The notes under the pieces are model-generated. The model had not been told where the DNA came from. It saw only the letters and a program-made list of their open reading frames with translations, and did no database searches. A stretch of 64,000 nt of DNA from Patescibacteria group bacterium (lineage in GTDB: Bacteria; Patescibacteriota; Patescibacteriia; UBA10025; JAHIVO01). The position numbers and the translations under genes were made by a program. Every line of letters begins with the position of its first letter. Positions within the stretch are counted from its first letter, which is position 1. Location: the NCBI GenBank assembly GCA_041660605.1, contig JBAZWB010000001.1, positions 9,295-73,294 of the forward strand, read 5' to 3'. Shown piece by piece: positions 6,350 to 63,028 of the stretch.

Positions 6350-7861
6350 TTGGAGAAAATTATATTGGCGACCAGAGATGACTTACTCCGTACTGTATCA
6401 GAGTTCGGAGGAGAAATCATAGGCGATCCACCACCGCCATCTGGCTACGGCTACCATCCGAGGGCCATGGCCGAGACCGCCGCTAATCGCCTTCGGTTGC
6501 GTGAGTTAAGTAAGCAAGCGAGGAGCGGATTATTGATTAATGGGGAAGTTATACATATTTCTCCTGAACTCTATGAACGATTGTACATCGGTAAACGGGT
6601 ACCACTGACGATGTACCATGATGAACGTCACCCGGCAGTAACGCTTTTACCGGCCTGGAAGCAAGAAAATATTGTTGATCATTTTTCTGATCCAATCGGC
6701 TTCGAGCGAATGCGTCTGTGGTTTGGCTCCTTCGATTTCTTTATTCAAGAAGACAGTTGGTTGGAGCAGGTACTCTGTACTCCACCATTCTGGCGAATGG
6801 GGAGCATTGTCCAGCTCGGTAACTTGGTCGCTCCGCTGCCGATTGGTCTGCGGTCAGATCAGGAAATTGTCTTCCTGGGAGAGCCATTCAGACATACGCG
6901 GTGGATTCACTCGCGGCTTGCGGCAGCCATGGCTGAAGTGCTGCTTGCTCGACTCGGCTTTTCTTCCGTCGAACGCGCGTCTATCGTACTGGCAATCGCT
7001 TACCACGACATCGCCATACCGGCGGGTGGAGATGCGATAAAACGCATTGATCCGTGGTTTCTCAATGAGGAGCGGAATTTCGCCTGGGTATTGCAGCAGT
7101 ATGGCCTGGATAAGAAGTGGGAGAGGCAGTATGGCTTTGACCTCCAGCAGGCAGCGGCCTGGGTGCGCAATGAAGGCATGCCTGGCTTCCTCTTGGATTT
7201 TTTAGACAAGCTGTCCTATGTGACGCTCGATTGCCATGCACTTGGTCTCCAGCGTGATGGCCAGACGCGCCGCTTCTGCCTGGAGCACCAGCTCTTCGCT
7301 GATGTCTGGCTCGACCTGCAGTGTTCCGAAGATCGTCATCGTCTGGCTTTCACTGATCCGCGCCGGCTCTGCAATTTTCTGATGGCACGGGCGCATGCCT
7401 CAAGCGAATTGTATTACAATCCGTTTGCCAGGACATATGATTACTTACTGACTGAGGTTGTCGGTGAACTGTACAAGCATGGGCTGGTTACCTGGCAAAA
7501 TCTGGTGACCTGGAGTCAAGATGAGTTGTTGCGGGTTATCGAGAAGAAGAGTCGTCTTTTCCACTCGCTGCGTAAACTACTCGATACCATACCGAATATC
7601 TTGGAACCGCAGCAGCTGGATTTCCGGTGGTTTCCGACCGAGGAGGAGCGCGACGCTTTTGCGGCAACACTTGGAGATCGTTTGCACCACCGGGATAAGA
7701 CCAAGCCCTTCACCACATGTCTTGACTGGCCGGTCTTCACTGACCCGGACAAGCGCCTGACGACAGCTCCGCTCCATTCGTTCCTTTCTGATCAGCAGAT
7801 CTTTGAGCTTGAGTGGCTCGCTCGCTCCAGGGCCGGCTACTATGTCTACTACCGCAAGTAA
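6350..7861 (+). CDS. HD-domain (metal-dependent phosphohydrolase-like) protein
   Basis: H...HD...D arrangement (RHTRWIHSRL ... LAIAYHDIAIP ... RIDP); TTG start with GGAG 9 nt upstream; about 57% GC. Confidence 0.5.
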   Translation: MEKIILATRDDLLRTVSEFGGEIIGDPPPPSGYGYHPRAMAETAANRLRLRELSKQARSGLLINGEVIHISPELYERLYIGKRVPLTMYHDERHPAVTLLPAWKQENIVDHFSDPIGFERMRLWFGSFDFFIQEDSWLEQVLCTPPFWRMGSIVQLGNLVAPLPIGLRSDQEIVFLGEPFRHTRWIHSRLAAAMAEVLLARLGFSSVERASIVLAIAYHDIAIPAGGDAIKRIDPWFLNEERNFAWVLQQYGLDKKWERQYGFDLQQAAAWVRNEGMPGFLLDFLDKLSYVTLDCHALGLQRDGQTRRFCLEHQLFADVWLDLQCSEDRHRLAFTDPRRLCNFLMARAHASSELYYNPFARTYDYLLTEVVGELYKHGLVTWQNLVTWSQDELLRVIEKKSRLFHSLRKLLDTIPNILEPQQLDFRWFPTEEERDAFAATLGDRLHHRDKTKPFTTCLDWPVFTDPDKRLTTAPLHSFLSDQQIFELEWLARSRAGYYVYYRK

Positions 7862-8261: not shown

Positions 8262-11412
<3,151 letters not shown>

Positions 11413-47966: not shown

Positions 47967-48102
47967 CCCCGTTAGAAAATTAGCCAATGGCCGTTTGATA
48001 ATAAACAATAATTTTATTTGAACCTTCTTTAATAACCAAAAAGATGTTTTATAATTTTCTAACGGGGTTGACAAAAAGAGGAAACCGTAGTAGGTTGTAG
48101 TG
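47967..48102 (+). repeat. Palindromic element copy 4 (terminal repeats CCCCGTTAGAAAATT / AATTTTCTAACGGGG, about 107 nt) with outward TTGACA-N17-TAGGTT
   Basis: Terminal repeats at 47967-47981 and 48053-48067; TTGACA 48068-48073; interior is the reverse complement of the copy-3 interior (for example ...CCTTCTTTAATAACCAAA.AGATGTTTTATAATT). Confidence 0.55.
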
Positions 48103-48129
48103 TTTAAAAGTGGTAAAATATATTTAACT

Positions 48130-51024
48130 ATGTCAAGGGAAACTTTTCATCCTAATTATGCCGATGCAGTTAAAGATGAATCAAATGATTCTAATTCTTT
48201 TGATAAAAAAAAGAATGTACATGGCAGTAAGTTGCAGGAAATTTTAAAATATTTTGACAGAACATTGGTACCGGGTCTGGATTTGAACGCAGTGTATCCA
48301 GAGTACGTAGGAAAAGAAGCTGATGTACAGGGTATAGATCAAGAGAAAGAGAAGGCGCTACTGGATCATTTAAATACTCAATATAAAGCCCTGACGGGGG
48401 GTCATGAAGTCCTCACAGAGATGAGCGAAGTTGAGCAACAGAAAGTTGGAGGATTAATAGAGGAGGTTGTTGAACAATATTGGAAGCCCACCATATCAAT
48501 GCACACGAAAGAGGCATTAGCAGATTTTATAGATAATCTCATTGTTCAACTCAATCAGGAAGGGGTTGAGCAGGTTTTGGAAAAAAGCTTAGATTTAAAC
48601 GAGAAAGGGAATATTAATAAAGTGGGTCATTGGATTAAACTTTTAGAAGAGCTTTATTGGCGTTCTGAGCGAATTGATCCGGAATCGAGAGAAGAGTACT
48701 TTCGGGATTTTGAATCTGAAGATGCCGTCGTGAAAAAGATAGTTGGAGAATTGATGGAAAAAATTAAGAACGAATCCGAGGGAAACTATTTTTTGAATGA
48801 ACGCATTAAATATCTCGTCGAGTGTATTAAAAAGGGAGAAGTCCCTGAAGTCGACACCTTACCGTTTGATTTTGATTTTGGGCACTATGCTAAATGGCAA
48901 GAAAATGGGAGACTCGCGGTGACACCAATGGGTGACGATGGTGATATTGAGGATGATATTGAAATGTATACAAAACTTGAGAATACTTTTTTAGAGGAAA
49001 TGGGTGCAACTCACAGCGATAAAGAAAAGAGCGCACTTCAAAAAGAAATGCAGGAAACACTCAGTGCGGTTGCCAATAAAATCCGTACTTCATATTACTT
49101 TGAGGAGTTGAAGCCATATCAACTCCGTTCTTTTACTGATCAGGTTGGGGACGATAAAGATAAATCATCTGATCAATCGCTATATGATTTTGAATACCTG
49201 CATTCACGTCAGATGAGGAAACAAATTGAAAAAGATTTTGGGATAGTGGTTGAGTATATTAATTTGCCAGTCCGGAATAAATTTTTTCAATTTATTAAAG
49301 AGAAAAATATTAAAGATATCGAACCAGCAAAGAATTTTTCCAAAAAATATGGGGAAGCAGGGCTGGTAACATTTTTATCTTTGGCACAGGATCCGACAAT
49401 AGGCAACAAACTGGTAGAACTTGGTAATCGCCTGCCTGAAGATGATGCTTATCGATTATTTGATCAGTATCATAGACTCATCACAAGCGCTAGCAGCAAA
49501 GCAGAAAAAATCCAAACGCTTCTTGCGCAGCAATACCCAGAAATAAATTTATCCAGGGAAGAACTTTCTGATTGTTTCATGGTACGCGCAAAGGATTTAT
49601 TAAATGAAAGCTTCAATAAAATGGAGGATGGAAAGCTAGATATTGATCAGGTTCTTGCAGAACTTAATCAGGAAACGGCAATACAAGAAGTTTTACGTGT
49701 TCAGTTCATGAAGATTGCCGAGCTTCTATCGAAAGATGATGTTGACTTGGAGACATATAACCATACGCAAGAAATGGTTATAAAAAGTATCGGAGAGTCA
49801 GGTCTAGTGAGCGAGGCGGCATATTTGCGTGCTTTAAACGCCATGGGCAAACTAAAACCCATGCCGGAATTATACTGGAAAGTTGACCGGGAGCCGGAAG
49901 AGTACAATAAACGTTTGGGTGTTAATGTACCGGAGGTACTGAAAAGAGTAGGCCAAGGTGGCAACGAAAAGACCTTATTGGAATTCGGTCCGGGTAGCGG
50001 TCTGGCCAAGCACAAACTGCGGTTATCCGGTGCGGCTGATAATTTTACGGAATTTGCCATGAGCGACGCGCTTTATTACGATTTAGCTGAACCAATAAAA
50101 CATTTAATTGATTTTGATAAAATCCAGGCCAAACTGGGCAAAGAATTAAATGCACAGGACAAGCAATCATTAATTGAGTATATAAAACGGACTATCGTCA
50201 TAAAAGTCGGCCAGACAGCTGTTGATAAGATTGAGTATGATCAGGAGTTTCAAAGTGATATTGCTCATAGTCCCAATGCCCTGAAAGAGTATATAAAAAA
50301 ATCCGGACATAAAGTTTCTCTTGCCGACACGGTGCCGACTGATCAAGCCGTAGAAACTCCGGATGGCCCAATATATGCTGAAAAATTTGAAGTAGCAAAA
50401 CAATCTCCAGCTTGGCAGGAAGCACGACGGCTTTTCATGGGTGAAGTGGAAAAATATTTGCGGGACGATTTTGATGAGCAGGATGTTTATGAAATATTGA
50501 ATGCCCATCCAGCCGGAATCATGATCGGGGACTTTAATGACGTTACAAAACTGAAAAATGACCAATTGGATTTTGCCCTGGGCGTCAGGTCGACGGTCTA
50601 TGTGGAGCGCGAGCAATATCCTGAATTTATTAAAAACGTGATAGCAAAATTAAAAGATGGAGGAATCTACATTGACGATAATGTGAGGGAAAATTTCGGC
50701 CGGTACTATCGCTTAGCAGAACTGAAGCAGGTGCAGGAGGACTTAGTTGAGCTGAAACGAAAAGGTGGGATAGATTTTGATGTCACTATTTCTCTGGTTA
50801 TCGGGCGTGGCGTGGCAGAAGAAGATTATAAAAAGGACGATGCGCCTATCGCCGTCGTTATTGCTAAGGGTAAAGCTGATCTATCAGTCGTTTCTGAAAA
50901 TTTATTGAAGTCCAGCAAGTTAGTCGGTTTGGACGAAGTGGTTGCTAATGGCGATTATCTGAAAAGCCTGGATCAGTCTGGTCGGGTTAAAAAATCAATT
51001 AATACATTACCACGAGCCGCTTAG
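48130..51024 (+). CDS. Large hypothetical protein (964-974 aa; track start is the GTG at 48100)
   Basis: Long low-GC ORF; possible SAM-binding motif I-like stretch KTLLEFGPGSGLAKHKL; otherwise no motif recognised. Confidence 0.55.
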   Translation: MSRETFHPNYADAVKDESNDSNSFDKKKNVHGSKLQEILKYFDRTLVPGLDLNAVYPEYVGKEADVQGIDQEKEKALLDHLNTQYKALTGGHEVLTEMSEVEQQKVGGLIEEVVEQYWKPTISMHTKEALADFIDNLIVQLNQEGVEQVLEKSLDLNEKGNINKVGHWIKLLEELYWRSERIDPESREEYFRDFESEDAVVKKIVGELMEKIKNESEGNYFLNERIKYLVECIKKGEVPEVDTLPFDFDFGHYAKWQENGRLAVTPMGDDGDIEDDIEMYTKLENTFLEEMGATHSDKEKSALQKEMQETLSAVANKIRTSYYFEELKPYQLRSFTDQVGDDKDKSSDQSLYDFEYLHSRQMRKQIEKDFGIVVEYINLPVRNKFFQFIKEKNIKDIEPAKNFSKKYGEAGLVTFLSLAQDPTIGNKLVELGNRLPEDDAYRLFDQYHRLITSASSKAEKIQTLLAQQYPEINLSREELSDCFMVRAKDLLNESFNKMEDGKLDIDQVLAELNQETAIQEVLRVQFMKIAELLSKDDVDLETYNHTQEMVIKSIGESGLVSEAAYLRALNAMGKLKPMPELYWKVDREPEEYNKRLGVNVPEVLKRVGQGGNEKTLLEFGPGSGLAKHKLRLSGAADNFTEFAMSDALYYDLAEPIKHLIDFDKIQAKLGKELNAQDKQSLIEYIKRTIVIKVGQTAVDKIEYDQEFQSDIAHSPNALKEYIKKSGHKVSLADTVPTDQAVETPDGPIYAEKFEVAKQSPAWQEARRLFMGEVEKYLRDDFDEQDVYEILNAHPAGIMIGDFNDVTKLKNDQLDFALGVRSTVYVEREQYPEFIKNVIAKLKDGGIYIDDNVRENFGRYYRLAELKQVQEDLVELKRKGGIDFDVTISLVIGRGVAEEDYKKDDAPIAVVIAKGKADLSVVSENLLKSSKLVGLDEVVANGDYLKSLDQSGRVKKSINTLPRAA

Positions 51025-51788
51025 GAGCCAGATGGTAAGGTTGACCAGAGGAAGTTAAATAGAATTTTAAAGTTGTTGGCAATCTCTTCATTGTCGATCA
51101 GTACGCCAACGGCGTTTTTCTTTTGGAAAGTTATCAGTGAAATTTTGTGCCCGCTGATTTTAATATCCATCCGGAAAGGGAACTTATTGACGGGGATTAA
51201 TCTTGCCTCAATAAATTTATCAGAGTTAGTTTTATTTAATGCATTGGTATCCGGCGAGATAACACGATTGAACAATTTTTTTTGCACGCGAGTTTTTATG
51301 TATATTGGCGCGTAATCTGGAATATATTCTAGAAGGTCGCCCTTTTCCTCTATGCTGTCAATTGGTTGGTTATTTGACAGAAGTTCCTCGTAGATTTTTA
51401 TTATACCCTCTTGGCCCTCGAAGAAACGAACTCCGGGCTTGTTCATCGTTAATCGGTAGGTTGAGGCAAGTTGCTCAAAATTACTTTGCAGCACTTTTTT
51501 TTGCTGGTTAAGTTGGTGCTCATTTTTTTCTACTAAAGCTTTCAGCTGTTCCGGCGGCTCTACGGTAAATACTTTCTTCCCACGCTCTTCAGTTTCCAAA
51601 ACTAGGCCTTTCTTAATGAGGTCGCCAAGGATGTCGTAGGTATTGCCCCGTTTATAGGGGACTTTGGGCAGGAGCTTGCCCATATTAGCTTTGCCCAATA
51701 ACAATAAGGCCTCATAAACGGTGGCCTCTTTTTCTGAAAGGCCAATTTGGTTGAGAGTTTTAGCAATGGGGGAGGTAGGAGGGGGCAT
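51021..51788 (-). CDS. TrmB-family HTH transcriptional regulator (paralogue 1)
   Basis: N-terminus IGLSEKEATVYEALLLLGKANMGKL...GLV winged helix of the TrmB type; its C-terminus resembles that of the 56377-57135 protein. Confidence 0.55.
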   Translation of the reverse strand: MPPPTSPIAKTLNQIGLSEKEATVYEALLLLGKANMGKLLPKVPYKRGNTYDILGDLIKKGLVLETEERGKKVFTVEPPEQLKALVEKNEHQLNQQKKVLQSNFEQLASTYRLTMNKPGVRFFEGQEGIIKIYEELLSNNQPIDSIEEKGDLLEYIPDYAPIYIKTRVQKKLFNRVISPDTNALNKTNSDKFIEARLIPVNKFPFRMDIKISGHKISLITFQKKNAVGVLIDNEEIANNFKILFNFLWSTLPSGS

Positions 51789-51988
51789 ATTATTTGAGGT
51801 TAATCCCTGTGGATAAGTCTGTCCACAAGAGTTTTTTAGTTAACTTAGAAAGTCTGCTTACGGGTTAATTCTAGCAAACTAATTAATTAATGTCAATATT
51901 CAATGACATTTTAGGTTAATAATATTTAATAAATTAATCCCTTTATCACAAGCGAGTATCACTTTTTAAATTCTATTGGCATTTACCG

Positions 51989-52017
51989 TTGACAAAAATA
52001 CTAAGTGGGTATATACT
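51989..52017 (+). promoter_or_regulatory. Near-consensus sigma70 promoter TTGACA-N17-TATACT with no ORF downstream
   Basis: TTGACA 51989-51994, TATACT 52012-52017. Confidence 0.5.
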
Positions 52018-52024
52018 GATTCGT

Positions 52025-52520
52025 TACGCTAAAAATTCGTTCTTTCGGAAGAAGCTCTTTTTCAAAAGCACTGAAGCCAAATGACTATGAAGCGTCATCA
52101 AACATTGGTGGCAATTCAAGCCGGCTTATCAGTCGAAAGTAGATCAGCTGTTTAATCAAGGGTTGATGCAAGTAATAGGAGAGAGACAGCCCTTGGCAAA
52201 GCAACCATTTATTTTCTGGCGATACTCGTCAGTGGCGCTCCCGGCGCTCGCAAACACCGCGAGACCAGGAGAACAGTGTTGAGTATCAAATGAGTGATGA
52301 GGAGGGAACTTTGACAATTGAATAAATGATATGCGCCGCCTTTCATAAGCATCGGGGCGGGCACCGGAGAGAGCACCTTCGCTTCATATTTATATGCGGC
52401 ATGGTGAAAGCGGCAGTGAAAACTGCTGAAGAGCTTAGAAAACTTTTAGAATTCATTAACATGAATATATACCAATAAAAGGGACTCTCTCATTAAATGA
52501 GCATGAGTCCCTTTTAGTTT
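52025..52520 (+). ncRNA. Candidate noncoding RNA of about 490 nt, family unidentified
   Basis: Strong promoter, no ORF above 50 codons, many local hairpins, ends at a bidirectional terminator (GGGACTCTCTCATTAAATGAGCATGAGTCCC then TTTT). Confidence 0.3.
52481..52520. terminator. Bidirectional rho-independent terminator
   Basis: Hairpin flanked by A-run and T-run on both strands. Confidence 0.5.
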
Positions 52521-52893
52521 GGTTTGGGCAAAGAGAGGAGAGAGAAGCAGTGAAGGCCTAATAGCAATATACAATATTCGAGGCCACATATCTGTCTCTT
52601 CTCTTTGCTCTTTTAGAAAGTAATTGTTCTTTTCCTCCTACGCGTAAACGCTATGGAGGACACAGTCAGTGTTTGAAGTTTTCCATTTGGAATTATTGGA
52701 TCGGCATAAACGACTTGCGCTTGTTGCAAGCGTCATGCGGGTCAACGAAGGAGAGAGGATAATGGAAAATTTTTAGCCAGACGGTTAGCCCGTTGTCGGG
52801 AATCCAAGATTTCCGGTTCGCGCAACAAGTTCGCGGATCGGGAGGACGGCAAACGAGACACAGACGCTAGCCCCAAGTGCGCCCCCACACCTT

Positions 52894-53166
52894 TTAGTCT
52901 TCGTGAATTGAGTGTTGGATACGTCGTTTCAATTGGCCCCACGCCTTCGCATGTTTCTTGAGCTGGCGTTCACGTTCGTACGCATCTTTTCTGGAAGCGT
53001 ACGCTTCATAGTAGATAATTTTCCACGGCCGAAACGAACGGGTATAGGTACTTTCGCCATTATTGTGCTGTATTAATCTTTGTTGCGGCTGTTTGGTGAA
53101 GCCAATGTACTTTTTACCCGGATATTTAACACTCTTTAATATGTACATAAAGTAATACATATACAT
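52894..53166 (-). CDS. Small GIY-YIG nuclease-domain protein (UPF0213/COG2827-like); alternative start at 53148
   Basis: YILKSVKYPGKKYIGFTKQPQQRLIQHNNGES...WKIIYYEAY...ERERQLKKH matches the GIY..YIG..R..H.N..E pattern. Confidence 0.7.
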   Translation of the reverse strand: MYMYYFMYILKSVKYPGKKYIGFTKQPQQRLIQHNNGESTYTRSFRPWKIIYYEAYASRKDAYERERQLKKHAKAWGQLKRRIQHSIHED

Positions 53167-53244
53167 ATTATATCATGGTAACTAAAAGGTGTGGGGTGCA
53201 GTTGGGAATAAACTCAACTGAAAAATCAAAAACAAAGTCCCGTC

Positions 53245-54660
53245 GTGGAAACACAGATGGGCGAGGAGAGGAAAATGTTTGTACGAGTTAGAATGTCCAG
53301 CGTCGCAGAGCCAGGAAAGCTCTGGACCGGCGATACGCCAGAGGATGGTGCTGTCGCTGAAGTTGAACTTGTCGAGTTGCACTGCGAATGCGGTGCGTCA
53401 ACCCGAAAGTTCAGAATTTCCAACGAGCTACCCGTGCAGCTTGTTGGCGAGGCAATTGATGTGAGTCAGTTGCCGATTGCCTACATCTCTTGCGGAGGTG
53501 TGGGATCGACCCGTGACTCCGTAGAGGCATTGGAGGCATGGAATTGGTCGGGTCGCGTCGGTGGCTCGGTCATAATTGATCCACTCGTTGTTCTCGAGGG
53601 ATATGTTTCTTGTCCTCCGCCTACGAAGAATGGATTCAAGTGGATATGCTTGTATAGTGGATCCACTTTGAACGGATTCGTCCTTGTCCGTTTGGATAAG
53701 AGTGGAAATCTCCACCCGGATCACTGTCCCCTCGTCCGTACGGTAGATCAGGCACGGGAATGCCCGCCTTGTAGGGAGAAACGCATTTCCGCGGCCTTGA
53801 ATGGTGTCGAGGAGATGTTCATCATTGAAACCGACGTCGAGTATCTTAAGGTCGGCGAAGGTGAAGAGCTCCCTGCTCACGCCGTTCGGGCATGGGCAGC
53901 TGCACCCACGTTGGAGGGGGCAAAGAAGGGAAAGATTTCTTTCCTCTATGAAGGTGGGGCAGGTGGCCGTCGTGGGCCGCAAGCCACCGGTCATCTTCAG
54001 GACTTATGTTGCCTGAGGGTGAAGATCAAAAATGGAAGAGTTTCACATCTTCTCTGGGTTATGAAATCCGGGGAGATGATAGAGGACACTCATTATGAGT
54101 TCATTGGTGAGTGCCAGATCGCTGGTATCAACCTTAAGGTTGGCCAGTGGTTTCCGGACTACCTAATACCAAAGGAGGCCGAAACTCCTTTGGTAGAATC
54201 GGACCCAGTACCCCTTTTCTTAAATGAGGAGCTAATTTCGCTCGCCAATAGAGCGAAAGACGTTTCTGGTGAGAGTGACTACGCTCTTGCTAACTCAATT
54301 TTTGCCTACCTTTTGGAAAAGTTTTTCCAGGAAGGCGAGAATTCAGGTCTCGAATTAGAGCTCGAAACACAGGACCTAGAAGGTCGTGGTCCGAGTGAGG
54401 TCTTCTATGACCTTCTGGTCGCCAGAGCGGGTGAGAGCACGCTCTGTATTCCGGTACCTTTGCTGGAAAGCAAGAGCGCCTTGACTGCAGCAAAAGCTGC
54501 AGCGAAGGTGTTTCGTCGGGAGCACGAGCGTGATTCTAGATCGGATCCGACCGAGATGAAAATTCTCTGGCAGGAAGTACTTGAAAAGGTGGGAAGAGAG
54601 GCTCTTGAGGCTTCCTTCTACCACCTGGTAGATAAGGTAGAAATACCTTTTCTCGAGTAG
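53245..54660 (+). CDS. Hypothetical protein A (471 aa), GC-rich, with Cys clusters (CECG...CPLV...CPPC)
   Basis: Coordinates taken from the track; GTG start; conserved leader AAACAAAGTCCCG.CG...GGGCGAGGAGAG; followed by the hairpin GGAGGTGACGTTTGCACAAACGCCACCTCC. Confidence 0.5.
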   Translation: METQMGEERKMFVRVRMSSVAEPGKLWTGDTPEDGAVAEVELVELHCECGASTRKFRISNELPVQLVGEAIDVSQLPIAYISCGGVGSTRDSVEALEAWNWSGRVGGSVIIDPLVVLEGYVSCPPPTKNGFKWICLYSGSTLNGFVLVRLDKSGNLHPDHCPLVRTVDQARECPPCREKRISAALNGVEEMFIIETDVEYLKVGEGEELPAHAVRAWAAAPTLEGAKKGKISFLYEGGAGGRRGPQATGHLQDLCCLRVKIKNGRVSHLLWVMKSGEMIEDTHYEFIGECQIAGINLKVGQWFPDYLIPKEAETPLVESDPVPLFLNEELISLANRAKDVSGESDYALANSIFAYLLEKFFQEGENSGLELELETQDLEGRGPSEVFYDLLVARAGESTLCIPVPLLESKSALTAAKAAAKVFRREHERDSRSDPTEMKILWQEVLEKVGREALEASFYHLVDKVEIPFLE

Positions 54661-54842
54661 TTCTTTTTGAAATCAACGCATTGCACATGTGCTTGGTTTC
54701 AGCAATCGGAGGTGACGTTTGCACAAACGCCACCTCCCTCTTTTCCAGTTCGTGAGTACACATTCTCGGACTGAAAAAGAAACCAAAACAGAAACAAAAA
54801 ACAAAGTCCCGACGGTTTTCACCGTACGGGCGAGGAGAGAGT

Positions 54843-55829
54843 ATGAGAACGAGTAGTAGAGGAAATGAGTCACAGCTAATCGAGGGCGCGAGAGTCATGG
54901 CGCCCTTTGATGAATCTATCTTCTCAGACATCATTTCAGCCGTTAAGGGTTGCCGGAGCTGGGAGTTACTGGCAACCGAAGGAATGTGGGGACGCAAAGG
55001 GTTTCTAGTCCTCGCCGGGCCTAGCAACGGCGTACAACTGTACGTAGAATGCGATCATATCCGACGGCCTGGGAGAACGACGGAGATGGTGTGGATTTGG
55101 GGTTGGGCACCAAACCCATTTTCACGGTTGGTAATGGTTGAACCCAATTGCCAGTCTGAAGCGGATTTGCTATCCATCCTTCGATGGGTCGCTAACCGTG
55201 CCGGGATCAGCACGGGGAAACTAATTGGAATTCGGGAAATTCCTGGGTTCCAGTCTGAGGAGAGTTTTCCTTTCCCCTGGCCCAGCGTCGGTGAGAAAGT
55301 GAACCACCAAGACGGCTGGTTCACTCGTTCCAAGATTGTATATCGGGTTGAAAAACCCGAATGGTTTGAAGGGGATGCTTTCCGTATCGCGGAAGGTATT
55401 TACATCACCTTCCCAGACGGTTCCTACCGCTTGGTCCAATCGGCTAAGGAGTTTTTCTCCTGGCCGGGGTGGTCGCTTGGTCCATCGATCCCGACGGATA
55501 TACCCGGCGTTATCTCGGGATATGGGGGGCCAACTCACCGGCAGGGCGACCTGATGGTGTGGCCGGCTCCCGGTGATCTAGGTGAGTGGGAAGGAGAATT
55601 GAGTTTCCGGGGCTTAACCCTGGATACTAGTCACTTTCTTTTGGTAGACGAAAGTCTGCCGGAGGGGAAGGGGTCGCTCGACCGTCATACGGTCGAAAGA
55701 AACGATGATGGTTCGGTGGTGATTACTCACCCCGAACACGCTACCGTGGAACTTCCGGCAGGGAAGTATATTATTGGGCTCTTGCCCGGTACTTCCCGGC
55801 CATTTAGCCGAGACAGGGATCTCGACTAA
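54843..55829 (+). CDS. Hypothetical protein B (328 aa), GC-rich, Trp/Gly/Pro-rich
   Basis: Same conserved 5' leader and the same 3' hairpin as gene A. Confidence 0.5.
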   Translation: MRTSSRGNESQLIEGARVMAPFDESIFSDIISAVKGCRSWELLATEGMWGRKGFLVLAGPSNGVQLYVECDHIRRPGRTTEMVWIWGWAPNPFSRLVMVEPNCQSEADLLSILRWVANRAGISTGKLIGIREIPGFQSEESFPFPWPSVGEKVNHQDGWFTRSKIVYRVEKPEWFEGDAFRIAEGIYITFPDGSYRLVQSAKEFFSWPGWSLGPSIPTDIPGVISGYGGPTHRQGDLMVWPAPGDLGEWEGELSFRGLTLDTSHFLLVDESLPEGKGSLDRHTVERNDDGSVVITHPEHATVELPAGKYIIGLLPGTSRPFSRDRDLD

Positions 55830-56167
55830 TATTGCACTAATGGAGGTGACGTTTGCACAAACGCCACCTCCTTCATTTCCAGCCTATCACCCTACGCTAA
55901 AGCTTCGGGTGGTTGTCTGAAAAAGAAATTTTGTCTCCCCGCACCGGATCAGGCGCTGCGTTTGTTCATTACATTACGAATAAGCGCGGCCTCCTCTCTC
56001 CAGCCTGGTCCGATGCGGGGAGGGAATTATTAAATAATAGCGGTTAGATGTCACAAACCGCGCCGTCGGAGATAGATTTTTTCCGCTGGTTTTTTATGTT
56101 ATAATGATTTTAGCGAATCTCTGTCTATGTACGGAGTTTCGTTAATTCATCTTTCATAGGAGGATAT

Positions 56168-56269
56168 ATGGAAGATTTACACGTACGTCCGCACCTTTAC
56201 GTTCGCCCACGTCCGCCATCTGTAGATATGATGAACGGTAATGTGAAGCTGAACGACGACGAGAACTGA
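56168..56269 (+). CDS. 33-aa Pro/Arg-rich peptide MEDLHVRPHLYVRPRPPSVDMMNGNVKLNDDEN (not in track)
   Basis: AGGAGGATAT RBS directly upstream, extended -10 TGTTATAAT at about 56128, own terminator GGAGTGCCAACCGGCACTCCTTTTTT. Confidence 0.4.
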   Translation: MEDLHVRPHLYVRPRPPSVDMMNGNVKLNDDEN

Positions 56270-56295
56270 GAACCACCCTGTTCTAACTTTCTCGT

Positions 56296-56322
56296 CAGAA
56301 TTTCTGGAGTGCCAACCGGCAC
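56296..56322 (+). terminator. Rho-independent terminator of the peptide gene
   Basis: GGAGTGCC-AACC-GGCACTCC followed by TTTTTT. Confidence 0.6.
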
Positions 56323-56376
56323 TCCTTTTTTAATATAAAAACAGCCATTTATTCATTTAATAATGAGTGTGACTTT

Positions 56377-57135
56377 CTATTCTTCAGGCAGGCTATTCCA
56401 AAGCGTCATAAAAATAAAACACAGTATCTGCGCCATTGCGGGATCCTCAATGAGTACTACCTTCAAGCTTTCCCCTTCTATGGACGCGATAGCAATGTTG
56501 TCCCCAAAAAGCTGGATACCCGCTGGAATGTTAATATTTTCTTTAAGGAAACGAAATTTTCGGTAGTTGCCTAATGTTTCGCTAAATCGCTTATGCGCAA
56601 GAATTCTACGATCGGTAATAGCGTACGCTGTTGTTGATTGTTTTATGCGTTTCAAAGTTAAACGGCGGTATACCTCTTCCGCTTTCATAATTGGGAAGAA
56701 TGTATCAAGCGACCCGAACCAGTAATTGTCTTTATTTTCTTTGATTAGCTTATCAATGATTGCACGAGCGCCCGCTTTTCCCTCATAGTACGTAACTTGT
56801 GTAGAGGGGGTTTTGTGCTTGATCGCCTGGGTGAGTGCAGGAATGAGCTTTTCAATTACATTTTTGTCCTGCACAATCTTTTCTTCTTCTTGGTTGAGAA
56901 ATTCTCGGAATGCTTCAGTCGGCGGTGTGGCGGTGATTAACTGTCGTTTACCTTTGATAATACGGGAAATCAATCCTCTTTTTTGCAACTTTTCAAGATA
57001 AAAATAAACCGTACTGCGCCTGATGCCCGTAAGGCGAGCCAAATTCGCCGGATTATTGGGCTCGTGCTGCAAACAGGCGAGGTAAATAGCTATTTCCTTC
57101 TCCTCTAAACCTAGCTTTTTTAGAAGTTTTTCCAT
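56377..57135 (-). CDS. TrmB-family HTH transcriptional regulator (paralogue 2)
   Basis: LGLEEKEIAIYLACLQHEPNNPANLARLTGIRRSTVYFYLEKLQKRGLI; C-terminus ILCFIFMTLWNSLPE parallels ILFNFLWSTLP of paralogue 1. Confidence 0.55.
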   Translation of the reverse strand: MEKLLKKLGLEEKEIAIYLACLQHEPNNPANLARLTGIRRSTVYFYLEKLQKRGLISRIIKGKRQLITATPPTEAFREFLNQEEEKIVQDKNVIEKLIPALTQAIKHKTPSTQVTYYEGKAGARAIIDKLIKENKDNYWFGSLDTFFPIMKAEEVYRRLTLKRIKQSTTAYAITDRRILAHKRFSETLGNYRKFRFLKENINIPAGIQLFGDNIAIASIEGESLKVVLIEDPAMAQILCFIFMTLWNSLPEE

Positions 57136-61804: not shown

Positions 61805-62040
61805 AAACCTTATCAAGAGAGAGCTGAGGGTTCTGGCCCAACGACGCTCCGACAACCATCCTACGCTTTTCATTGCATTCAAAGCTTTGGATGGCGTAGC
61901 CCTAGTAATGAGGCTACGCCACGAGTTAATTAAGTGAAAGAGCAGCAGGAACGGTGCCAAGTCCAGCCTAGCCATTTACGGATGGCCGGGATAGATAAGA
62001 GATAAAACAATCTCTTAGATAATAAGAGATTTTTTGTTAC
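61805..62040 (+). ncRNA. SAM-I (S-box) riboswitch with an enlarged P3/P4 region and a terminator expression platform
   Basis: CTTATCAAGAGAGAGCTGAGGGTTCTGGCCCAACGACGCTCCGACAACC matches CUUAUCAAGAG.GG.GGAGGGA.UGGCCC..GAA.CC.GCAACC; GGTGCCAAGTCCAGC matches GGUGCUAAAUCCAGC; P1 3' strand GATAAGAG; terminator ATCTCTTA-GATAA-TAAGAGAT + TTTTTT at 62011-62036. Confidence 0.75.
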
Positions 62041-62065: not shown

Positions 62066-63028
62066 ATGGGCCAATCATTTTCTGAAAAAGTTAAGGATCC
62101 TTCGTATTATCCGGTATTATACGAAATGTTGCCTCCACCGGGAAACGGCAACCATTCGGCCTCGCAGGCTTTTCTGAAAGTCCTGGACAAGATTTTTCAT
62201 AATGTGCGGATTGATGCCATTAATATTCCGGAGATTCATGAGGAAAAAGGCCAGTCTGGCCAAAAAGAAGTTCAGACTTTTGACAAAGCCGTTCCGCGCC
62301 AGTTTGCCCGAGAGATATTAAAACACCGGAAAGATTTTGAAGTCATCATCAACCACGTAGTTGTGCACCAGCCGCCGGAGATATTTCATCAATGGGCAGC
62401 GGAAACATATGATGAATTTGGCCTGAAAAATTTAATTTTGGTAGGCGGCGAATCGCCGAAAATCAAATACCCCGGTCCGACTGTTACTGAGGCTGCAGAA
62501 TATCTGCGCGACAAATACGTTTCCGGGGTGAAAGATAATAAATGCGCGTTGCTTGGCGGCATTACCATCCCGACCAGGCGGCACGCGCAGGTTGAACAGG
62601 ATGAGCCGGCCCGTTTGGTGAAGAAAAGCCAGAGCGGCATAGAATTTTTTACCAGCCAGGTAATCTACGAGGCAGAAACGACGAAAAGCCTCTTGAGCGC
62701 CTATAACACCTATTGCCATAAAGCCGGCGTAAAACCAAAAAGGATTTTTATCAGCTTCGCGCCGGTTTCTACGCCAAAAGACATTAAATTTCTCCGCTGG
62801 CTGGGAGTCAGCATTCCCGAAGAGGTTGAGCAGCATCTGCTGGAAGGCTGGGTCGGCATGGGTTGGCGTTCGGTGGAATTATGCCAGGAAATATTGTCGG
62901 ATATTTTAAATCATATCAGAAAATTCAAGCTGAAAGTGCCGATCGGCATAAATGTCGAGCATATCATGAAGTATAATGTGGAATTGTCCAAGGAGCTGCT
63001 GGTAAATTTATCCGAGACTTTGAAATAA
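62066..63028 (+). CDS. Methylenetetrahydrofolate reductase-like protein (MetF family)
   Basis: Co-linear similarity to MetF (VLYEMLPP, VGGESP, QVIYEAET...FISFAPVSTPKDIKFLRWLGVSIPEEV); downstream of a SAM riboswitch. Confidence 0.6.
   Translation: MGQSFSEKVKDPSYYPVLYEMLPPPGNGNHSASQAFLKVLDKIFHNVRIDAINIPEIHEEKGQSGQKEVQTFDKAVPRQFAREILKHRKDFEVIINHVVVHQPPEIFHQWAAETYDEFGLKNLILVGGESPKIKYPGPTVTEAAEYLRDKYVSGVKDNKCALLGGITIPTRRHAQVEQDEPARLVKKSQSGIEFFTSQVIYEAETTKSLLSAYNTYCHKAGVKPKRIFISFAPVSTPKDIKFLRWLGVSIPEEVEQHLLEGWVGMGWRSVELCQEILSDILNHIRKFKLKVPIGINVEHIMKYNVELSKELLVNLSETLK

Follow-up and report, generated by a model that had tools for sequence, protein, structure and literature searches.

Why would two neighbouring genes whose proteins are not alike carry the same leader before their starts and the same hairpin after their stops? 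The question arises in a 64-kb stretch of a contig, JBAZWB010000001.1, from an uncultured, ultra-small member of the Patescibacteria (hereafter the window, in whose coordinates positions are given unless a related locus is named), where gene A and gene B follow each other on the plus strand. An earlier reading made from the letters of this stretch (the sequence-only reading) had seen the shared flanks and offered two meanings for them, shuffling of cassettes between conserved boundaries or a common regulatory RNA structure. We find that genes A and B are a two-gene array in a Patescibacteria-specific variable locus, each open reading frame (ORF) being framed by a module of hairpins, and that the setting is a previously undescribed type of Patescibacteria locus. 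The module is most likely intercistronic RNA punctuation, a real and structurally conserved feature that is not in Rfam.

Genes A and B share both flanks

The palindrome GGAGGTGACGTTTGCACAAACGCCACCTCC, 30 nt long, occurs in two exact copies, at 54708-54737 and 55842-55871, each 3' of a stop codon. The sequence-only reading had called the two near-identical and had placed them at about 54700-54730 and 55846-55875; the copies prove identical, and the coordinates given here replace the earlier ones. There is no third copy in the window at up to three mismatches, and none arises in 100 shuffles. The 3' repeat around the palindrome extends to 41 nt at 95% identity, with C(T)TC(A)TTTCCAG included, and 3' of both palindromes stands CTGAAAAAGAAA (54771-54782 and 55917-55928), a shortened form of which, CTGAAAAA, lies ahead of gene A at 53215-53222.

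The 5' leader is likewise common to both genes. Its first half, AAACAAAGTCCCG(T/A)CG, is found at 53230-53245 and 54799-54814, and its second half, GGGCGAGGAGAG, at 53259-53270 and 54828-54839, with exactly 13 nt between the halves in both copies. After a further 4 or 3 nt comes the ATG at 53275 or 54843, starts that we adopt because alignments of homologues place them there; the whole leader with its start codon thus covers 53230-53277 and 54799-54845. As had been read from the letters, the leader is found at both starts and the two proteins are not similar (best BLASTP E = 0.5); neither half of the leader has a further copy in the window. The word TTGCAC is also concentrated here, with 4 of its 18 copies in the window lying within 283 nt 3' of the two stop codons. 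The repeats are non-random, far beyond chance.

A third boundary, taken for a degenerate copy of the others with arms about 75 nt apart, had been proposed 3' of gene B. The arms exist (55935-55954 and 56003-56022, 20 nt, 90% complementary), but the gap between them measures 48 nt and they have no sequence in common with the other boundaries. They belong to a separate long hairpin, designated hairpin D.

The module folds into a series of hairpins

Folding gives the module a constant order: one or two 3' hairpins (hp0 and hp1), a second hairpin (hp2), an A/C-rich linker, a 5' hairpin (hp3) and the ribosome-binding site (Table 1). The 3' hairpins carry UUGCAC(AA) at the tip and are followed by a short, interrupted U-tract; the TTGCAC of hp0, at 54681, precedes that of hp1 by 38 nt. 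In hp1, the tip UUGCACAA closes 13 base pairs with one A·C mismatch, and of the next 8 bases, in the tail CUCUUUUCC or UUCAUUUCC, 5 are T, with C breaking the run. A simple terminator scan does not list hp1, owing to its internal mismatch. The base of hp2, in which the U-tract of hp1 pairs with a downstream A-tract (CUUUUCCAG / CUGAAAAAG), is conserved around an interior hairpin that is unrelated in sequence and length between the two copies. Similarly, hp3 has a CCC…GGG base with a variable but paired interior and ends two bases before GAGGAGAG, a long ribosome-binding site.

Folding z-scores for hp1 plus hp2 are -5.9 after gene A and -3.9 after gene B, and both leaders take the same hairpin shape. 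In six of seven module segments the sense strand is more stable than the antisense. Ahead of gene A the module is represented by its 3' part only (CTGAAAAA, an A-rich tract and hp3), with a long hairpin (hairpin U) before it, while 3' of gene B the place of linker and leader is occupied by hairpin D. With a sense-strand energy of -58.7 kcal/mol (z = -9.1; antisense -47.1), hairpin D is predicted to be a distinct long hairpin that closes the array.

Table 1. Features of the two-gene array and its upstream region, in window coordinates; all hairpins are predicted folds
Feature	Position	Strand	Description
Sigma-70-type promoter TTGACA-17-TATACT	51989-52017	+	Promoter scan score 11/12; divergent from the TrmB gene
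Long non-coding leader	52018-52871	+	GA-rich motifs, e.g. GCAAAGAGAGGAGAGAGAAGCAG at 52528; several hairpins
Hairpin U	52872-53206	+	CCCAA-GU-GCGC-C-CCCACACC… / …GGUGUGGG-GUGC-AG-UUGGG; tip holds the GIY-YIG insert; flanks GCCCCAAGTGCGCC and GTGCAGTTGGGAA
GIY-YIG nuclease gene and arms	52883-53196	-	Gene 52894-53166, 90 aa; Pfam GIY-YIG E = 6e-15; insertion in the tip of hairpin U
Gene A leader	53215-53274	+	CTGAAAAA, A/C-rich tract, hp3 53237-53262 (CCCGUCGUG-GAAA-CACAGAUGGG), ribosome-binding site GAGGAGAGG
Gene A	53275-54660	+	461 aa; N-terminal domain (PGKLWTG, GASTRK, WNWSGRVGG) conserved in Patescibacteria
hp0	54668-54701	+	First 3' hairpin of gene A, AUUGCACAUG at the tip
hp1, copy 1	54708-54748	+	30-nt palindrome, tip UUGCACAA, one A·C mismatch; tail CUCUUUUCCAG
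hp2, copy 1	54739-54782	+	Base CUUUUCCAG / CUGAAAAAG around a variable inner hairpin
Gene B leader	54783-54842	+	A/C-rich linker, hp3 54806-54831 (CCCGACGGU-UUUC-ACCGUACGGG), ribosome-binding site GAGGAGAGAG; aligns with the L004 leader
Gene B	54843-55829	+	328 aa; 57% identical homologue P0006 in L004
hp1, copy 2	55832-55882	+	UUGCAC word at 55832, hp1 55842-55871, tail UUCAUUUCCAG
hp2, copy 2	55872-55928	+	Same base, longer unrelated inner hairpin
Hairpin D	55933-56024	+	12-nt unpaired CU-rich bulge CCUCCUCUCUCC at 55990-56001; array end

Paired stems are conserved in the only close relative

The only close relative of the array lies on L004, a 5.9-kb contig that carries the gene B homologue of Table 1. 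There the module surrounds this homologue and the next, unrelated gene, with three hairpins after each and a leader hairpin with ribosome-binding site before each (CCCACUCCG…CGGAAGUGGG-CGAGGA and CCCGUUGA…UCAGCGGG-CCAGGAGG). Three of the 3' hairpins are tipped UUGCACAA, and the hp2 base reads UUUUUCACC / GGUGAAAG as against UUUUCCAG/CUGAAAAA in the window. All three TTGCAC copies of L004 fall in its 3' intergenic segments, with the same 38-nt spacing. Further copies of palindrome and leader, which the sequence-only reading had suggested looking for, are thus absent from the rest of the window and present in L004 as structurally equivalent, diverged versions.

The divergence is informative, since the stems differ from those of the window and yet pair, which reveals selection on structure. 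In the hp1 alignment 89% of cells are paired, compared with at most 46% when partners are slid; both partners have changed in five of seven pairs, all four Watson-Crick types occur at one pair, and none of 500 shuffles reaches the score. Interior positions 4-9 of hp3 differ in nearly all copies and, as read from the sequences, still pair, including G·U pairs on the sense strand; a bulged A in its 3' arm holds the same position in two copies and sits two pairs nearer the base in a third. Of the two proposals made earlier, the common regulatory RNA structure is therefore the better supported, as three hairpins recur in L004 with compensating stems and an invariant UUGCAC tip. The L004 array moreover ends with a canonical terminator and then a promoter, which places its hp1 copies inside a transcription unit.

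Rfam returned nothing meaningful for the region at gathering thresholds or permissive E-values, only miRNA-precursor and similar families at low scores, and a covariance model of hp1 recovered just its five training hairpins. Some other roles for these elements were considered and dropped: an uptake-signal sequence (TTGCACAA is not frequent in the genome), a CsrA site (GGA occurs in the loop of one copy only) and a small ORF starting from the arm of hp1 that resembles a ribosome-binding site (the copies give it different lengths).

Distant loci repeat the design with other sequences

More distant loci, given here by their L numbers, show the same design built from other sequences. L010 has two copies of a module of about 110 nt, made up of a hairpin, CTTTATTGGGCTTGCAATTCTCCGTGTGTGCGGAA, a leader hairpin and GAAAGGAAGT, which is also found in L001 and L016. 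In L017 two successive genes share one leader, and in L023 a leader of about 170 nt stands ahead of two unrelated genes. The starts of most gene A homologues are preceded by an A/C-rich tract, a small hairpin and a ribosome-binding site.

In three of these loci a gene A homologue is immediately followed by a candidate type III hammerhead ribozyme (L012, 6654-6702; L013, 6746-6812; L021, 554-622), placed after the 3' hairpin of the gene and ahead of the terminator. A strict hammerhead descriptor matches these three sites and no others in 410 kb. Rfam scores the L012 hammerhead at 37.8 bits, below threshold, and misses that of L013, though it meets the strict descriptor. The modules of the window contain no hammerhead in an Rfam scan (RF00008 and related families), and the descriptor has no match in the window. 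On the strength of these positions, defined 3' processing appears to be selected in the gene A family. A full-text search found no relevant literature on hammerheads in Patescibacteria or the Candidate Phyla Radiation.

A candidate element of RNA punctuation

Starting from the observed repeats, folds, compensating conservation, restriction to the locus and recurrence in related loci, we read the module as an intercistronic RNA element that would act in attenuation, processing, stability and translation, and give this reading a probability of about 0.5. In the mechanism proposed, hp1 with its tail would be a leaky terminator and a barrier to 3' exonucleases, and the transcript would be cleaved in the single-stranded linker. 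Next, hp3 together with a bound ribosome would shield the new 5' end while keeping the ribosome-binding site exposed, with the result that gene A and gene B messages would be stabilised and translated separately. The invariance of the UUGCAC tips implies a sequence-specific factor, which would bind there. Post-transcriptional organisation in Patescibacteria is, to our knowledge, essentially unstudied; if the reading holds, the module would offer a compact, portable element that sets relative gene expression within an operon, as well as a pointer to the factor that binds UUGCAC loops.

Several points weigh against this reading. Co-transcription, cleavage, any influence of the module on stability and translation, and the binding factor are all things that we infer. 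The module is present in two genomes only, so that the covariation statistics draw on very few sequences (five hp1 copies, four of them distinct, and four hp3 copies). The U-tracts are short and interrupted, and terminator activity may accordingly be weak or absent. One segment, 55830-55930, is more stable as antisense. The two hp1 copies of the window agree at 30 of 30 positions, which exceeds what structure alone would need and suggests either a recent duplication or gene conversion or a constraint on the sequence itself, possibly at the level of DNA. Finally, the upstream promoter is separated from gene A by the antisense GIY-YIG gene, which makes the promoter of gene A uncertain; weak promoter-like sites occur at 53126-53171.

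Possible boundaries of exchanged gene units

The repeats could also mark DNA-level cassette boundaries, where units of an ORF with its 3' hairpins are gained, lost or swapped, through recombination at the repeats or by the action of a nuclease that recognises hairpins, for example the GIY-YIG protein of this locus. The repeats would then be cause or scar of the shuffling. We consider this unlikely, though well worth keeping in view, and it is compatible with a function in RNA. What keeps module-bounded exchange a live rival is L004, which lacks the equivalent of window positions 53275 to about 54786, that is, exactly the gene A ORF with hp0, hp1 and hp2. It retains hairpin U and an ORF-less relic of the gene A leader, followed directly by the gene B leader and gene B; this indel, with its retained boundaries, comes from a single genome comparison. 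The content of the interval varies elsewhere too. In L022 the syntenic UvrB-RuvA interval is occupied by two small genes and a gene B homologue and nothing more, and in L023 a gene B homologue comes first behind TrmB and leader, the slot that gene A homologues occupy in L005 and L006. The array has a GC content of 52%, above its local flanks (about 40%) and the rest of the window (45.5%), and an excess of at least 8 points recurs in seven of eight related loci measured. The identity of the two hp1 copies would also fit.

Against exchange stands first the absence of its usual machinery: attC cores (RYYYAAC / GTTRRRY) are missing from both strands of every module, a scan of 37 of the largest ORFs of the window gave no recombinase, be it an integrase, a transposase or another kind, and the module recurs neither elsewhere in the window nor in 16 related loci. 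Simple leader-to-leader recombination would leave one hybrid leader, but L004 has two. Moreover, compensating changes, G·U pairs and an invariant tip held in fixed relation to stop and start speak for long-term function in a transcript and not for recent mobility. Cassette shuffling in the integron sense, as first proposed, thus finds no support in cores, recombinases or extra copies, and only a weaker form, suggested by the missing gene A unit of L004, is left.

The GIY-YIG gene deserves separate mention. It encodes a single-domain protein of 90 aa with Pfam GIY-YIG as the only match, and lies between perfect inverted arms of 16 bp (52883-52898 / 53181-53196, 100% complementary). In L004 (237-285) the flanks of hairpin U, GCCCCAAGTGCGCC and GTGCAGTTGGGAA, are conserved and the predicted hairpin is uninterrupted. 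Homologous genes with arms are found in the leaders of L010 (5150-5447) and L023 (about 6430-6745, a frameshifted pseudogene), so that, judging from these arrangements, the gene looks like one that homes into hairpin tips. The arms in L001, L010 and L023 form one sequence family (CCAGCACTWAC…) with hairpins scattered between L001 genes. Ssn-type nucleases, single-domain GIY-YIG proteins of about 90-100 aa (CDD cd10448), cut single-stranded DNA at hairpin repeats flanking their own genes (PMC11893778), and such an activity would suit exchange at hairpins. In the window, however, the arms and hp1 have no sequence relation, and there is no enrichment of the published Ssn-related motif: the pattern HGTCWY…RNCYNB occurs once in 64 kb (position 1242) against 0.37 expected, never near the GIY-YIG gene or the modules. 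An Ssn/SRM system was rejected because this pattern is not matched.

Some further observations concern the two long hairpins. The GIY-YIG gene has an extended -10 promoter of its own, TGATATAAT, as the letters show, and its perfect arms measure 16-17 bp across loci. At the foot of hairpin U, UUGGG (53202-53206) can pair with CCCAA (52872-52876), closing the hairpin, or locally within 53199-53220 (CAGUUGGG with CUCAACUG); the two pairings are mutually exclusive and lie just 5' of the gene A leader. A search of viral contigs with the hairpin U pattern gave no match. In the bulge of hairpin D, CUCUCUCC is complementary to GGAGAGAG of the gene B leader, and the bulge could conceivably serve as an anti-ribosome-binding-site element or a 3'-derived small RNA.

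Exchange and RNA function might also be two sides of one undescribed Patescibacteria system, with a TrmB-linked promoter, a long structured leader RNA and hairpin-delimited GC-rich ORFs, in which ORF units are exchanged without an integrase and the hairpins are both RNA processing signals and recombination boundaries. The delimiting hairpins would be sequence-specific, with UUGCAC as their tip word, and a hammerhead ribozyme would take that role in other members. We would grant this combined picture a small chance. GIY-YIG nucleases homing into hairpin tips would possibly help the exchange, and the locus would then exemplify integrase-independent gene exchange in reduced genomes.

Less probable readings: separate promoters, selfish repeats or a ribozyme

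Each gene might form its own transcription unit, with hp1 and its U-tract as terminator and a hidden promoter behind it; the flanks would then be a duplicated promoter-terminator pair. The GC-rich hp1, with its 13 base pairs and the T-rich tail, is formally terminator-like, and identical regulatory flanks would co-regulate the genes. This is nevertheless improbable. A promoter scan finds no sigma-70-like promoter on the plus strand from 53200 to 56000, the space between genes A and B included, while clear TTGACA-17-TATAAT promoters are present elsewhere in these loci. The space from hp1 to the leader hairpin is filled by hp2 and the A/C tract, with no -35/-10 elements conserved between the window and L004, where hp1 copies lie upstream of a separate canonical terminator.

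Selfish palindromic repeats of the REP, BIME or MITE-like kind, functionless for the flanking genes, would account for two perfectly identical palindromes, and palindrome families do populate related loci, for example the CCAGCAC… hairpins of L001. Such an origin is quite improbable here, as the 64 kb contain only two copies, which share their orientation and their position with respect to a stop codon. The 22-nt core of the palindrome has no match in viral, metagenome and reference-genome collections, among which the source genome is not included. In L004 the stems have diverged while tip and pairing are kept, which argues for old, selected elements, and the hairpins have no GTAG head beside them, nor is there a RAYT/IS200-like gene (Y1 transposase) among the window ORFs scanned.

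That hp1, hp2 and linker are a new self-cleaving ribozyme, the protein-free counterpart of the hammerheads in L012, L013 and L021, is very improbable: the equivalent place of those hammerheads (from 3' hairpin to next element), the conserved single-stranded nucleotides beside conserved helices and the lack of an Rfam match would suit it, but no conserved core or pseudoknot was identified, simple hairpins account for the conserved parts in a comparison limited to two genomes, and CUGAAAAAGAAA, tried and rejected as a degenerate hammerhead, resembles the core CUGANGA…GAAA only superficially and has neither stem II nor stem III.

The array belongs to a recurrent locus type

The locus lies between UvrB and RuvA, with a sigma-70 and a GATase gene on one side and a FemAB and an NTP-transferase gene on the other. 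To the left of the array stand, in order, a 974-aa protein, TrmB on the minus strand (51021-51788), divergent promoters and about 1.2 kb of non-coding leader. The promoter in Table 1 likely starts the long leader transcript. L006 has the same TTGACA..TATATACT..GTTACG arrangement 5' of its gene A homologue, and the GTTACGCT start in L023 is comparable to the leader promoter of the window. The leader at 52018-52871 contains no convincing ORF and no Rfam match, and comparable non-coding leaders with GA motifs, 0.6-2.5 kb long, occur in L001, L005, L006, L010 and L023. Within it, the motif at 52528 pairs with 52591-52608, and a bidirectional terminator-like hairpin lies at 52476-52516; as Rfam has no match for it, the leader may be a large, undescribed non-coding RNA.

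The same neighbourhood, a large methyltransferase-like protein, TrmB, promoter, leader and GC-rich ORFs, accompanies gene A homologues in L005, L006 and L010 and, in L023, a gene B homologue. TrmB, leader and ORFs are also seen in L001, where the stretch examined begins inside the TrmB gene and the large protein falls outside it. The locus type recurs in at least three Patescibacteria lineages and is recognisable by TrmB, a long leader, punctuated GC-rich ORFs, hammerheads and GIY-YIG genes in hairpin tips. In the window (48100-52017) and in L005, L006, L010 and L023, the large protein (844-1217 aa) is followed by the TrmB-family regulator and a strong divergent promoter, and a gene A or B homologue is always downstream of the long non-coding leader. 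Pfam matches of the large protein are faint, to methyltransferase (L023) or acetyltransferase (L006) families.

Gene A homologues come from Paceibacterota, Nomurabacteria and Moraniibacteriota genomes, and the N-terminal domain defines a small family. L001, L010 and L016 encode the C-terminal part as a gene of its own. In relation to L001, L010, L014 and L016 gene A appears as a fusion, as two genes stand there with a structured spacer of about 160-230 nt, of the local module type. An AlphaFold model of the product (mean pLDDT 38) was unusable for fold comparison. Gene B has one close relative (L004) and 63 distant ones, of which ten scanned contain no Pfam domain; homologues lie at syntenic or analogous loci in L022 and L023. 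Gene A, gene B and the neighbouring ORFs of related loci have no Pfam, PHROGs or PADLOC match, and searches with genes A and B against phages (including tblastn) and plasmids returned none.

Side observations concern other parts of the window. In four loci (window 51808-51827, L001 874, L005 6577, L010 4959) the spacer that separates TrmB from the leader promoter contains a conserved, perfect DnaA-box word, TTATCCACA, read as CTGTGGATAAG; in the window it has an inverted 7/9 copy, TGTCCACA, as its partner. The stretch from the array to a second TrmB paralogue (56377-57135) contains a unit at 56095-56325, namely a small ORF of 33 aa (56169-56270, MEDLHVRPHLYVRPRPP…) with a strong ribosome-binding site, a canonical terminator (56306-56325) and an extended -10 promoter of its own, TGTTATAAT. 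The 23S rRNA match at 8266-11406 spans 3141 nt against a 2925-nt model, suggesting insertions of about 200 nt. A SAM riboswitch (61807-62001) precedes an MTHFR-like gene (62066-63028).

Comparison with known systems

As in integron cassette arrays, unrelated ORFs of the same orientation each carry an imperfect palindrome at the 3' end, and the indel seen in L004 comprises exactly one ORF with its palindromes. Integrons differ in having R''/R' core sites, intI, attI and Pc, whereas the three intergenic modules show no R''/R' pair 40-150 nt apart on either strand, the units number only two, and the array's neighbours are TrmB, the GIY-YIG nuclease, UvrB and RuvA. Each ORF here has a long conserved leader, which cassettes lack. 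The conserved part of the palindrome is also different: attC sites conserve their base, and the palindromes described here their tip.

Extragenic palindromes after genes, and a small GIY-YIG gene bracketed by inverted repeats, recall REP/BIME elements with RAYT and the NTS/SRM repeats of Ssn (PMC11893778). Those repeats are dispersed, in contrast to the two copies in 64 kb; the SRM pattern is unmatched, and hp1 shows no relation to the arms of the nuclease gene. An Ssn gene is flanked by two complete repeats, one per side, whereas the nuclease gene here sits between the two arms of a single hairpin.

In the early region of phage T7, RNase III sites act as hairpin punctuation between cistrons. 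Stable 3' hairpins would be left on upstream messages in the same way, as in hammerhead-punctuated transcripts, and related loci have a hammerhead at the same place. The array differs in its lack of phage context, by PHROGs and by phage tblastn, and of a hammerhead core in the window.

The closest parallel among studied mechanisms is selective RNA processing and stabilisation (SRPS), cases of which include the Rhodobacter puf operon, the E. coli malEFG REP stabilisers and B. subtilis cggR-gapA. Intergenic stem-loops serve it in the cip-cel operon of Ruminiclostridium cellulolyticum (PMC4423207, PMC10311766). Both there and in the array, one cistron ends and the next begins with stem-loops, a single-stranded stretch, where cleavage would fall, lies between them, and the design is repeated along the operon. 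Stem-loops that flank an intergenic site within one transcription unit are what predicted folds, covariation and the absence of an internal promoter indicate here. The module departs from SRPS in its near-identical repeats, in its invariant UUGCAC tip, in a leader hairpin fused to the ribosome-binding site and in being known from sequence alone. With its sequence-specific tip, three covarying helices, the fused leader hairpin and no match in Rfam, it is a candidate new RNA motif.

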